64,000 nt of DNA from Pocillopora damicornis (Eukaryota): positions 248,001 to 312,000 of the forward strand of contig NW_020844892.1 of the NCBI RefSeq assembly GCF_003704095.1, in the 5' to 3' direction. Below the pieces are notes generated by a model, which worked only from the letters and a program-made list of their open reading frames with translations, was not told the origin of the DNA and made no database searches. A program made the translations under genes and the position numbers. Positions 1-6,000 of this stretch are shown piece by piece; within the stretch, counting starts at the first letter, position 1, and each line of letters begins with the position of its first letter.

Positions 1-3000
1 CAACGCTTTCTTTGTCTACAATTCTGACGTGTNNNNNNNNNNNNNNNNNNNNNNNNNNNNNNNNNNNNNNNNNNNNNNNNNNNNNNNNNNNNNNNNNNNN
101 NNNNNNNNNNNNNNNNNNNNNNNNNNNNNNNNNNNNNNNNNNNNNNNNNNNNNNNNNNNNNNNNNNNNNNNNNNNNNNNNNNNNNNNNNNNNNNNNNNNN
201 NNNNNNNNNNNNNNNNNNNNNNNNNNNNNNNNNNNNNNNNNNNNNNNNNNNNNNNNNNNNNNNNNNNNNNNNNNNNNNNNNNNNNNNNNNNNNNNNNNNN
301 NNNNNNNNNNNNNNNNNNNNNNNNNNNNNNNNNNNNNNNNNNNNNNNNNNNNNNNNNNNNNNNNNNNNNNNNNNNNNNNNNNNNNNNNNNNNNNNNNNNN
401 NTTCAAATCAGATGAAGTCAAGTCTGTCATTACTTCAACGCTTTCTTTGTCCACAATTCTGATGTCTAATTCTTCGTGTTTATCAGCAAGGTATTCCTCC
501 TGAGCTGCTTTAATATCTTCCAAGTAGTTCAAATCAGATGCAGTTAAGTCTGTCATTACTTCCACGCTTTCTTTGTCCACAATTCTGACATCTAATTCTT
601 CGTGCTTATCAGCAAGGCATTCTTCATGAGCAGCTTCAACATCTTCCAAGTAGTTCAAATCAGATGAAGTCAAGTCTGTCATTATTTCAACGCTTTCTTT
701 GTCCACAGTTTTGATGTCTAATTCTTCGTGCTTATCAGCAAGGCATTCCTCATGAGCTGCTTCAACATCTTCCAAGTAGTTCAAATCAGATGCAGTTAAG
801 TCTGTCATTACTTCAACGCTTTCTTTGTCCACAGTTCTGATGTCTAATTCTTCGTGCTTATCAGCAAGGCATTCCTCATGCGCTGCTTCAACATCTTCCA
901 AGTAGTTCAAATCAGATGCAGTTAGGTCTGTCATTACTTCCACGCTTTCTTTGTCTACAATTCTGGCATCTAATTCTTCTTGTTTATGAACAAGACATGC
1001 CTCATGAGCGGCTTCAACATCTTTTAAGTATTTCAAATCGGACGCAGTTAAATCTGTCATTACTCCCACACTTTCTTTGTCTCCAATTCTGAAATATAAT
1101 TTGTCCTCCCCATCAACAAGGCATACCTTATGAGAGGCTTCAACACCTTCCAGTAGCTGTGGATCCGAAGCAGTCAAACTGTGGACACTTATGGCTCCAT
1201 ATCTGTTGGCCTGTGGTTCCGCATTTCTATCAGGAGTACATTCATTTCTTGGCCCTTTCACAGCCTCCAAGTATTTTAGGTCCGACAGAGTGAAATCAGT
1301 CATGGTTTCAACACTGTGCTTCTCAGCAAAGCACACATCATTAACCGCATCAACGTTTTCATAGCACTTAAGATCCGAGACGGTAAGATATGTCATTGTC
1401 TCCACAGTTAACCTTTCCACTGAATTCTTTTCATTCTCAAGTTCTTCGCTTTTTCCTCGCAAACTACTAATCTCCACATCATATCTCTGCTCGATTCCCA
1501 TGTCAGCAATTGTTTTGTTTTCTTCCCTACCATTTAAACGTTCCCTGTGTAATTTCTCTTCTTGCCCCCAATATTCTATATCATCAGAAGTTAGCTCTGT
1601 AGCTACACACTTGTCTACTTTGGGATACCTCTGGTGAAGTTTTTCAGTTTGATGTAGAGGCTCGAGGACGGGAATGGTTACGTCTGTCGAGATCATCTTG
1701 TCCATTTTCTCTGTACTGAACTCCAGGAGACCATTTGCCCCTTCTAACAAATGGTCGAGAATCGAAACTGTCAGATCTGTCGCAGTGTACTTCTCTTCTT
1801 TTCTTACCTCTTCGTCTGCACCAGCTCTCGTCTTTTGTCTGTAAAGCTCTTCTACTTCCTCAAGGTACTGAAGGACGTCATGTGTAATGTCTGTCATGCT
1901 CTCTTGCTCCCATTTTTCTACCATCGGTAGACTTTCCTCCTGACGAGCAGCATTCTCAATGTAAAAATCCTCAAGCTCCGAAAGCTCGACAAACGTCAGT
2001 TCTGTCATGCATTGCCGCGACTCTTTTTCAGCATGACTTAATATGGAATTTGAATCTGAATCCACATCATGCAAATGTTCCTTGTACAAACTTTCCAGAT
2101 CAGCAAGATCTTGCATGGCTATATCAGTTATGCTCTCTTTGTCATCTTTCTCCACTTGAAACTGAGCAAGTTTGTTTTTCATATCTTCCAAGTTCTCCCT
2201 GTAATCTCTGTAAGTGTTCTTAAGGTCCACAACTTCTTCCCACACTCCGTGAGTTGTATCACACTCACCTTTAGTCTCCGCCTCTGGATAGGTCTCGAAT
2301 ACGATCTCTGGTAAATCTTCGTTGTCCAAAAAATCTTTTTCATCTGTTATAGTTTCAACTTCTTTTGTATCGACACTGAATCTGGCGTTTACGAGATCTT
2401 GCAAAGAAAGCTCTGTGGAACTACTTTTCTCTTTCTTTTCGACTTCAAAAAGGGAGATTTTGTCTTCAAGTTCACTGATAATACACTTATAACTGTAACA
2501 TTTTTCTTGTAAGCTATCAATATCACTCCACGTGAACTCTGTAGAACAACTCTCCTCTTTTTTCTCAACGTCAAAAAGAGCAATCCTCTTTTCCAGTTCT
2601 TCAAGACTATGTTTGTAGTCAATACACTTGTTACTCAACTTTGCTATGTCATCGCATTTCAACTCTGTCATCTCGCACTGATCTTTTGTGCAAGCGAGAT
2701 CTTCTGGAAATGTGTCCAGCACAATTTCAGGTAAAGTTTCCACCCATTCAACGGATGAAAACCCAGTCATCTCGTCCTTCTCCGTAACTACACCTGATTT
2801 GACCTCGTGAAGGTTTTCGATACATTCTAAGTATTTAATTTCCATGAGGGCAAGTTCTGCCAAACTGAGGTCGGTAACAATTCCTACTTCATGTCCATGA
2901 CTTCCCATGTCCATGTTGCTCTCGCTAACCCCTCTTGGTAAAGAAGAATTAGATTTTTCGTTTTCCTGTTGATCTAGTTCTTCCCAACTTATTTCCGCCA

Positions 3001-6000
3001 CTGTGTCACTATCCTCCCGACTCGATCTACCTGCCGTTGTTTCTTGTTTCTTACTTTCTAATTCCTCAAGATCTTGGCAATTTATGTCTGTTTCATTATC
3101 TACAGTTTCTACCTCACCTTTACATTTTCCATGTGCGAATGAACGAACATAGGTTTCTTCCATTTCTCCTAACTCCCACCATGCAAGATCCGTCATGCAA
3201 TCTTTATCACTCTTTCCACTTGTCTCTCCTCTATCTGGAAAGTCGTGAGGGTAATTCCTGCCTATGTTTTCAAGACTAACTAAATCATCCCCAGTCAAAT
3301 CTGTCATACAACACGTGTCTTCTGTTACTACTCTTGCGTGCTTTAGATATTTCATTGCTTCCATTCGTTGCTCTTGGTAGAGTTCAATGTTATCCACCTT
3401 AGTCCACTGCAAGTCTGCAAGTGTCTCACGATCACAGGTGAGTAATGAAAGGCTTCTGGTTTCATCAAGGTCAGACTTCAAGGACTCACTGTTGTACTAA
3501 ATATATCACAAAATTGTCAAAAATGATAGCTTACTGATCAAGGAGCGGAAGAAACTTGAGAAAATTGACTTCAGCAGCACCAGAGAGGAATGCTTAAAAT
3601 ACTCCACCTCAACCGAAAAAAGGCACTTGTTTTCATTAAGGCGAGAAAAACGGCAAAAACGGCATCATATTTTTCGTTTTTTTTTGTGTAAATAAAAAAT
3701 CAAAAAGGAAATTTTTCATGGAGTTTTGCAGTTTCTGGAGCCAGGTTTTATCGAAAAGTAGAATTGCCGGAAGTGATGGCGGAGTCTTGTTACCATAAAA
3801 TTTCGTGCTTCGTAATCGATGCACAGACATAAGCCTAACACTAAACTTAAAGGCACCAAAACTGTTTCAAATTTTCTTATGTTAACATATTCTGCACATT
3901 CGTAACTGGACTGAAAATGGCGAGGAAGCCAAACAACCGGACCAAATCGAATGTATTGCCAAGACGCAGAAAAAAAAGATACAATTGTAACTCTTATTAT
4001 TTATGGAGAAAAAAAAAGACGTAATAAACTTACGCCCAAGTCCAAGTCCCGGACTTTGTCTCTCAATGCCATCTCAGTAATCTCCATGTGATGGATTTTC
4101 TAATTCATAGAGGATGAAACACGCATTATAGCAGCTTTATATTCAGGATTATGAGCACCTTAAAGCTAAGAGTGAATTTTCCAAGTTATTCCTATTGCCT
4201 TGTGGTTCGTCGATACCTTTGTGGAAGAAGAAAAGAGTAGGCGAGAGAAAATTCATACCTCATCCATTGATTCCAGCATGATTCTGGCTTGTTTAAGAGC
4301 ACTTTTTTGTACTGGGGACAAAACATCTTCCTAAAAATAATCCAATTCATCAGCCAAGTACAGTTGCACGTGCAGTCAGTAAAAGTGCTGATCCAAAATA
4401 TAAACGAGTCCAGGCAAAAGAAGGCCATACCAACAAATAAATATCTATTGGCACACTGAAGTTACTTTAAGTGCAATTTTTTGGATGAAACCTGTTCGAA
4501 GTGTCACGATAAATTTCTCTATAGCTTTTACACTTAGTATGCGGCCAAAAAGTTGTAATTTTGGTATGGTTTGAAAAGTTGCGATGCAATTATTTACAAG
4601 AAGGTGTCGCAAAATTAAGCAACGAAAGCCAACAAATATACATAGTTGATTGCCTTCTAATGTACGTCTCGAGCAGTTGCGATATTCACAATGGATACCA
4701 GCTCACGTTTGGCTCGGTATCCGGTTAGATCGCACCCAGTTAGATGGCTCTAACCAAAAGTTAGATCGCTCCACTCGAAAGCTAGATCGCTCCATCAAAT
4801 AAGTCACTTCGCTTCTAACATAAGTTACTTCGCTCCATGTTGAAATGTGAGGTATTTCTTACCAATGATCTTAAAAGTTTATAGGTGATGATGTGGCTTG
4901 CGATAATTCGAGTACATCGTCCTCACTCTGTCCTTCAGATTAGCCACCGAGCTACCGATGTATGTTTGTATATCAATGATGGAATGAATGATCATGGAAT
5001 AAATTATGATGTTATAGTCTGAAGTGTATTGAAAAAGATCATTCAAATACCAATGCTGCAGGAAACTGATATCCGCCATCATTAATTAATAAAGTAGATT
5101 ACACTTCGTGAGTCCCTTACATGAGGCTTTAATTGTTCTCTCTGCGTAGCTCGGACTTATTTCAAGCGCGCGCGAGCGATATTAATCGATTGTTAGGTAA
5201 GATATGCACGTCATTTAATGGACTATCAATTTAGATACCTTAGTTTTGCTACCTTTACCTTAGTTTTCTACATGGAGCGAAGTAAGTTATGTTGGGAGCG
5301 AAGTCACTTATTTGATGGAGCGATCTAGCCGTTCTGCGATCTAACCGTAATTCTTTGGCTCGAATATACCTTTTCCGATCCCAGTTCCTCAAGAAGGGCT
5401 TTAATGTCCTCCAACGTAAGAACAGCAGCATCATTACTCTACGTCAAGGAAAATCATATCAGTAAGTGACAGAAAACAATAACAAACTCTCTAAATTTAT
5501 AGCCGAATGCAAATTTTGTAACTGAGTATGGGAACACTACGCTGTTAGATGAACATGAAGATGTCCAAAGTGACTGACCAGCATTCTTGGCGATGAAAAT
5601 GACTCAAGGCCATTTCTGGATTTTCTTGAATCCCAGTCCTCTGACCCTGCAGTCTAAAAAGTTGTTAGAGTGGTAAATCATACTAAAGTCTCTCTTCCTG
5701 CACAGTCATTTTTACAGACGTTTCCTCCCAAAAACCTCCACTTATCATACCACAAAACTCTTCTTTCTTTCTGTAATTTTAGCCAATCGCCACCGAAACA
5801 TTGTAAAAACAACACCAAGGCAAGCTTTTTGTAATAGAGTGCATTTCTTACATTTGCTTCCTATCTTTCAAGTTTTCTTAAACTTAAGAAATGATCAGAA
5901 AATCAGGATGACACCCCGAGAAGAAAAAATATTCAGCATCGCCATTAGCAAGCAAATTCTAGCACAAAGCTTAGGTCTCTCTTACTCTCGTTTCATTTAA

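Follow-up and report, generated by a model that had tools for sequence, protein, structure and literature searches.

The window analysed here, a stretch of 64,000 nucleotides from the coral Pocillopora damicornis (assembly GCF_003704095.1, contig NW_020844892.1, positions 248,001 to 312,000), carries near its left end, on the minus strand, the 5' part of a gene whose product opens with a JAKMIP-like coiled coil and runs on into a giant exon of repeated modules, each made of a short motif resembling LC8-binding sites and a predicted helix. Gene models of orthologues place this exon inside a protein that ends in SH3 and FN3 domains like those of RIM-binding proteins (RIM-BPs), and the modules, judged by their sequence, are likely to be LC8-binding sites. 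All coordinates are those of the window and the features are collected in Table 1. Papers are cited by their PubMed Central numbers.

Transcript evidence was taken from four of 22 listed runs, three of them RNA runs from three studies and the fourth of a type not on record. It consists of assembled contigs, thus without strand or expression level, and covers 1100–15500. The original prediction had the exon at 3496–402 spliced to JAKMIP through a joint from 4034 to 3496, and this joint is present in contigs from all three RNA runs; at position 4034 the RNA contigs have a different letter, in the silent third position of a Gly codon. One contig of 4,925 nucleotides (nt) extends from exon 1 through the insert, and the fourth run has an unspliced contig across 1276–4959. 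A 17-exon model from 15209 to 402, with 16 GT-AG introns, encodes 1,744 amino acids (aa) without a stop, and the giant exon begins at residue 714. The joint 8799/8690 comes from the GT-AG fit alone, and the other joints of exons 7–12 from RNA contigs. Contigs and model together bear out the predicted link of the exon to a JAKMIP-like coiled coil. Residues 1–455 of the model are 90.5% identical to the Stylophora isoform model X1, and exon 1 returned weak matches to generic centrosomal coiled coils from the ESM Atlas.

The minus-strand stretch 3496–402 is, as first read, a single stop-free frame, translating to 1,031 aa. All ten quoted examples of the motif are found in the translation, and the earlier estimate of about 20–25 variants agrees with 19 clear modules, 23 when degenerate ones are included, with a further one that the gap interrupts. 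The core [CSTVIAE][MIASV]T[DE][LIVFM] occurs 19 times, against a mean of 0.54 and a maximum of 4 in 1,000 shuffles. A profile built from these motif families gave 24 rows, equal to 23 modules, of which 19 outscore the best of 60 shuffles, with one further module truncated by the run of N; this count is descriptive only, because the profile was seeded on the same families and is therefore circular. The final 755 bases of the exon's in-window part form a tandem array. Since the 30 bases beyond the gap read as the same repeat, the exon extends outside the window. The 42-aa unit has been amplified to differing extents among corals, with longest regularly spaced runs of 2–11 sites.

No Pfam family was found in the giant exon at the cut-off, and the ESM Atlas gave no usable match for exon aa 430–900. 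A search against 1.84 billion representative sequences returned 18 matches; those checked were the same gene, and no unrelated family with this module was seen among them. At least 16 variants are listed in the exon, 7 silent and 9 missense, with no stop and none at positions −1 to +2 of any module; no insertion or deletion is among the variants listed. Given the RNA cover and the lack of stops and indels among the exon variants listed, we rejected an assembly artefact or a pseudogene.

The longer relatives of this gene, of 4,350–4,875 aa, are found in Stylophora, Oculina, two Acropora species and Montipora, and a search with the N-terminus adds proteins in Nematostella (4,570 aa), Dendronephthya (2,914 aa) and Xenia (2,296 aa). 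Orthologues with SH3/FN3 domains span 2,296–4,983 aa overall. The proteins named above all bear SH3 domains in Pfam, four stretches each except for two in Xenia X3, together with a single FN3 stretch of the Ig_RIMBP2 family. Their models, from stony corals, Nematostella and two octocorals, have one domain order: a JAKMIP-like coiled coil, the insert, a further coiled coil and the RIM-BP-like SH3/FN3 end. In Stylophora X1 the exon corresponds to aa 714–2152 (about 1,440 aa) and is followed by 2,207 aa that close with four SH3 domains and a single FN3 domain of RIMBP2 type. The exon is thus internal, because orthologue gene models continue into an SH3/FN3 half, and the idea of a C-terminal tail, with which the original prediction began, was excluded on these grounds. 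Its suggestion of a possibly lineage-specific scaffold does not hold for any narrow lineage either, since a Met-anchored array occurs in each of the five full hexacoral orthologues in which it was counted, among them that of Nematostella; a narrow lineage novelty is therefore ruled out.

Two points count against a single long gene. The SH3/FN3 half lies outside the window and the RNA cover shows no joint to it in P. damicornis, and three 968-aa open reading frames (ORFs) from assembled runs share a start at Met 3392 of Stylophora X1 (aa 3392–4359), which hints at a separate short transcript encoding a coiled coil with SH3/FN3. Both would be expected if the public models merged two neighbouring genes or units, a repeat-extended JAKMIP and a downstream SH3/FN3 gene, in which case a JAKMIP with a long tail would be nearer the truth. 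The RNA contigs reach none of the SH3 exons, an 829-aa assembled-run ORF likewise spans only the C-terminal part, and Oculina has a 322-aa model of the N-terminus alone. A continuous protein is nonetheless modelled in Stylophora, Oculina, four Acropora species, Montipora, Nematostella, Dendronephthya and Xenia, several of them with multiple isoforms, the single-exon ORFs of other assemblies terminate exactly where the models splice onward at the end of the exon, and a short form from an internal promoter could coexist with the long one. We therefore regard a merger of two genes as unlikely.

JAKMIPs are linked to kinesin and are coiled-coil proteins of about 800 aa that are not known to have SH3 or FN3 domains; the window model is already 1,744 aa long and open-ended. 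The JAKMIP_CC3 domain (PF16034, cut-off 30.2 bits) was scored on the orthologue proteins and not on the joined window model. It exceeds the cut-off in Stylophora X10/X11 (50.1 bits; in X11 at aa 485–616, E 3.5e-13) and in Dendronephthya (33.1 bits), and among the orthologues scanned it was not reported for the six longest full-insert proteins nor for Xenia. RIMB1_N (PF25566) matches below threshold (E 0.0019 and 0.00087) in the parts of the Oculina and Nematostella proteins that correspond to exons 2–6. In the PDB, the Dendronephthya orthologue has RIM-BP SH3 entries as its six best matches (E 1.8e-14 to 9.9e-07), KIAA1666 being RIMBP3. A search for shorter N-terminal relatives gave 95 matches, mostly short fragments, and named no bilaterian JAKMIP or RIMBP3; nor was a bilaterian JAKMIP among the matches listed for the N-terminal search that found Nematostella and the octocorals. 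The Nematostella orthologue, XP_048584845.1, differs from the published Nematostella Rimbp, XP_032236493.1, in accession and, compared by eye, in its N-terminus, and thus the gene studied here is not the one described as Rimbp in that species (PMC7565545). Taken together, its domains read as those of a paralogue of the canonical RIM-BP that also carries JAKMIP domains.

Stylophora also provides evidence for alternative forms of the transcript. In X10 and X11, two of its 11 RefSeq isoform models, splicing from a donor inside the exon removes 1,311–1,313 residues and leaves 8 of 31 pattern matches. Such skipping was not found in the listed isoforms compared for Acropora, Oculina and Montipora; one Xenia isoform is without a 45-residue unit. 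The donor-like sequence at the corresponding place in P. damicornis (3118/3117) is not among the RNA joints or loose ends listed for this species. Immediately downstream, 3117–2932 on the minus strand holds about 62 in-frame codons between the donor-like GTGAGG and a pyrimidine-rich AG, within the giant exon. This stretch is absent from the Stylophora models and retained in P. damicornis RNA contigs, and is possibly an exon-internal intron or a deletion in Stylophora. Models that lack the first 302–304 residues are found repeatedly, in Stylophora, Oculina and two Acropora species; an alternative start, likely conserved, would leave out the first coiled coil.

Seed modules from six hexacoral proteins have a consensus of roughly V-E-K-E-[DS]-[KVA]-E-[VTIC]-M-T-[DE]-L-T-x-x-D-L-x-Y-L-E, numbered here from the anchor residue (the Met) as position 0. 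One pattern counts 26–45 modules in five full-length hexacoral proteins at a median spacing of 41–57 residues, irregular outside the young tandem block. The consensus test used MT[DE] as its only seed, with +1 and +2 belonging to the seed, and pooled 105 distinct sites. Position −4 is Asp or Ser in 66 of these (background 0.16), −3 is Lys or Arg in 31 (background 0.10) and −1 is Thr, Val or Ile in 73 (background 0.18). Charged residues are depleted at −1 (6 sites, background 0.36), as is bulk at −2, Pro occurs within −5 to −1 in only 2 sites, and +3 is hydrophobic in 98. The published LC8 consensus has the same preferences at −4, −3 and −1 (PMC3078936), with the flank rules set out in PMC6607443, and the match of these non-seed flanks supports an LC8 reading. 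When tandem copies are collapsed the −4 and −1 signals persist in most species. No position is better conserved than the Thr at +1, which is the same residue in 58 of 66 comparisons between orthologues; for +2 the figure is 50 of 66, and outside modules it is 751 of 1,393.

Met occupies the anchor in 68% of seed modules, and Gln occurs there only at the end of the array and in octocorals. The array terminates in Q-anchored sites of GVQC/IQC type in all five full hexacoral proteins. In the same region of the two octocorals, Q anchors number 11 against a shuffle mean of 1.96 (maximum 7) and 6 against 1.43 (maximum 7), and no xMT[DE] was found there. There is precedent for Met at position 0 in the TMT site of myosin Va, which is helped by an adjacent coiled coil (PMC6607443), in a TMT site of Drosophila ASCIZ (PMC5963919) and in a predicted VMA site of KANK1 (PMC12803091).

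Other observations weigh against LC8 as the ligand. With the window taken by itself and copies collapsed, only −4 is enriched (6 of 7 sites), and −3 and −1 fit in 2 of 7 sites each, which is not significant; in Nematostella, also collapsed, −4 fits in just 5 of 14 (p 0.06). Pooled-site p-values are inflated because the sites are related by descent. Position 0 is conserved in only 41 of 66 comparisons, no Q anchor of either canonical or wide form was found in the 1,031 aa of the window, and the Xenia count of 6 lies within its shuffle maximum. The sites hold 2.8–3.2 charged residues in −5 to +2; LC8 prefers Gln at 0 and disfavours several like charges, and myosin Va is described as the sole TMT binder in the set of that study (PMC6607443). 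The spacing is also unlike that of KANK1, where cooperativity is ascribed to linkers of 3–4 residues (PMC12803091). The LC8 "ladder" originally proposed thus stands as a series of LC8-like motif-plus-helix modules, and falls as a ladder in the style of KANK1 or Nup159, with linkers of 3–5 residues.

When a complex was predicted for two copies of the module at aa 846–890 and an LC8 dimer, the scores were 0.37, 0.14 and 0.41, with unrelated-partner controls at 0.78, 0.09 and 0.00; the prediction used no alignments and a stand-in metagenome LC8, and counts neither way. The stand-in comes from a 10-kb metagenome contig on which two intronless LC8 genes lie about 2.2 kb apart.

AlphaFold2 predicts isolated helices and no fold, with a predicted template-modelling score (pTM) of 0.22 for the exon (17-row alignment) and 0.19 for the tandem block (13 rows). 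The original prediction would have been undone by repeats that form an independent fold, and from these shallow alignments none is predicted. The predicted helix begins about 5 residues past the anchor, and the motifs lie in low-confidence coil: motif centres fall in coil, in segments with a predicted local distance difference test (pLDDT) score below 50 in six of six cases in the tandem-block model and in most cases in the exon model. Hydrophobic positions recur at +8 and +11 after the motif, and LC8-promoted coiled coils have been reviewed for Swallow, myosin V and syntaphilin (PMC3995210). The 42-aa period, together with two designed repeat proteins of armadillo type that phmmer matched (4rv1, E 4.9e-05; 4hxt, E 0.024), would suit repeats that fold on themselves as a solenoid-type domain. 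We consider this very unlikely in view of the isolated helices, although with so few alignment rows they make a weak test, of the irregular spacing outside the young block, and of the lack of a Pfam family at the cut-off.

Another possibility is that the modules form an acidic spacer or self-zipper independent of LC8, in which the conserved letters cap the helix, set the coiled-coil register or bind a metal or some other partner, their resemblance to LC8 sites being in part a coincidence. The sequence L(+3)-T(+4)-x-x-D(+7)-L(+8) has the form of a capping box with a hydrophobic staple, as at helix starts. The hydrophobic residue at +3 is not demanded by the LC8 rules consulted here (PMC6607443), and the window is without a Q anchor. 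His and Cys recur at +18 (25%) and +21 (22%); HEEC in the module helix is a possible inter-chain metal site. Capping nevertheless leaves unexplained the Asp/Ser at −4, the beta-branched residue at −1 and the Thr at +1, all of which lie upstream of the helix, as well as the Q anchors that occur at the end of the exon and, in octocorals, in the corresponding region. An LC8-independent spacer is a serious alternative, if a rather doubtful one.

Our preferred reading, to which we give a probability of about 0.52, is that the exon is an internal spacer of a giant anthozoan JAKMIP/RIM-BP-like scaffold, whose modules offer weak Met-anchored strands to LC8 and so zip two chains together. The N-terminal coiled coils would hold two chains in parallel, an LC8 dimer would clamp both chains at each weak site, and the helices that follow the site on the two chains would come together as a short coiled coil. 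Cooperative zipping could then yield a segmented tether from the microtubule- or motor-facing N-terminal coiled coil to proline-rich SH3 ligands, with a crude upper bound on its contour of 360–490 nm if half is helix and half extended chain, and the internal splice donor may tune its length. A more far-reaching version, which we regard as speculative and improbable, would have anthozoans retain the full-length ancestral JAKMIP/RIM-BP gene, bilaterian JAKMIPs being truncated RIM-BP paralogues. The giant exon would then be the most multivalent LC8 partner described (26–45 sites), hexacorals would have exchanged Gln anchors for a Met-anchored strand-plus-coiled-coil module, and a tether some hundreds of nm long, switched by splicing and reaching from microtubule motors to release-site proteins, would make the protein a cnidarian counterpart of the giant active-zone scaffolds.

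Table 1. Features in the window of the gene with the giant exon
Feature	Position	Strand	Details and evidence
Repeat resumes past gap, leaves window edge	2..31	-	30 bases reading as the same repeat
Assembly gap (N) within tandem array	33..401	.	Run of N in sequence
Young tandem expansion of module	402..1156	-	Unit of 126 bp / 42 aa, 6.0 copies, 88% matches
5' part of giant internal exon	402..3496	-	1,031 aa, 26% Asp+Glu; motif-plus-helix modules: 19 clear, about 4 degenerate, 1 cut by gap
Three longer post-motif helices (aa 281-313, 323-356, 420-450), candidate weak coiled coils	2147..2656	-	AlphaFold2; heptad-like hydrophobic spacing by eye
Donor-like AAG|GTGAGG (3118/3117), where Stylophora X10 leaves the exon	3112..3118	-	Sequence match
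Intron joining coiled coil to giant exon	3497..4033	-	537 nt, GTAAGT..TTAG, phase 0; RNA contigs and model
Exons 13-16 (5653-5579, 5438-5370, 4330-4259, 4099-4034)	4034..5653	-	Joints in 3 of 3 RNA runs
Exons 7-12, including JAKMIP CC3-like stretch (8690-8598, 7577-7449, 7135-7055, 6546-6487, 6311-6252, 6120-6052)	6052..8690	-	RNA joints
Exons 2-6, coiled coil (13395-13198, 12361-12242, 10876-10739, 10188-10126, 8933-8799)	8799..13395	-	RNA joints, GT-AG introns
First coding exon, N-terminal coiled coil of JAKMIP/long RIM-BP type	14499..15209	-	237 codons; RNA contigs, gene model

The introns of the gene contain repeats of other kinds. A high-copy repeat lies in an intron at 10420–10580, where each of the four runs has thousands-fold contig depth and numerous loose ends. 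Another intron holds a 21-bp tandem unit at 4738–4837 and a related element at about 5130–5340, the latter with a joint on the opposite strand in one run; these are probably a small dispersed repeat. Elsewhere in the window, a sideroflexin exon (PF03820, E 9.1e-24) lies at 29830–30030 on the minus strand, adjoining a second gap at 30032–30131, and a UCH_1 match (PF13423, E 6.2e-05) at 43625–43909 on the plus strand marks an exon of another gene. A ZZ zinc finger (PF00569, E 5e-10) with a weak Di19_C match at 58008–61794 on the plus strand belongs to what we take, by its look, to be a KCMF1-type gene.

Multivalent LC8 tethers are already known, with at least 15 sites in KANK1 (PMC12803091) and 11 in ASCIZ (PMC5963919), and the coral array differs from them in valency, in its motif-plus-helix unit, in the switch from Gln to Met and in the host protein. 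In a literature search judged by its listings and covering few subscription papers, we did not find a published description of this gene or of a JAKMIP–RIMBP link. If the modules bind LC8, the valency would be two to three times that of KANK1 or ASCIZ, and a site with its own coiled coil at a 42-residue pitch, instead of short linkers, would be a third design. They would also provide a naturally occurring change of anchor from Gln to Met, which scores poorly with current predictors, and near-identical tandem units in which cooperativity is directly testable. Irrespective of LC8, JAKMIP and RIM-BP domains occur in one anthozoan protein, and the gene points to a second cnidarian RIM-BP-like gene, which bears on the origin of presynaptic scaffolds.

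Among known systems, Bassoon is likewise a giant scaffold that binds dynein light chains, though through three sites and with no sequence relation seen (PMC2700376). JAKMIP1–3 share with the coral protein the N-terminal coiled coil and the JAKMIP_CC3 domain (PMC5578018), a likeness by domain match; the coral protein runs thousands of residues on into the array and an SH3/FN3 end. The RIM-BPs (RIMBP2, RIMBP3, TSPOAP1 and Drosophila RBP) share the RIM-BP-type SH3 domains, the Ig_RIMBP2 FN3 domain and the weak RIMB1_N match, and the N-terminal coiled coil resembles, by eye, that of Nematostella Rimbp (PMC7565545). They have three SH3 and two to three FN3 domains in that source, compared with four SH3 and one detected FN3 here, and the coral protein adds JAKMIP_CC3 and a motif array of 1,400–2,000 aa.

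With respect to LC8, a single module is nearest to myosin Va, Swallow and syntaphilin, in which an LC8 site lies beside a coiled coil that LC8 stabilizes, Met-anchored in myosin Va (PMC6607443, PMC3995210); these have one site per chain, whereas dozens of such units follow one another in the coral protein. ASCIZ and Nup159 resemble the array in holding several LC8 motifs on two parallel chains, including the Drosophila ASCIZ TMT site, but theirs are 11, 7 or 5 mostly TQT sites without a helix at each, in a transcription factor and a nucleoporin (PMC5963919, PMC3995210). The L2 linker of KANK1, described in a preprint, is long and disordered, holds many anchors that are weak and non-canonical, and leads from an N-terminal coiled coil to a C-terminal interaction domain; it is a proposed tether (PMC12803091). 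In KANK1 the sites, 15 or more with linkers of 3–4 residues, form a rigid rod of about 53 nm, whereas in the unrelated coral protein there are 26–45 modules, spaced by about 42 aa and each provided with a helix.

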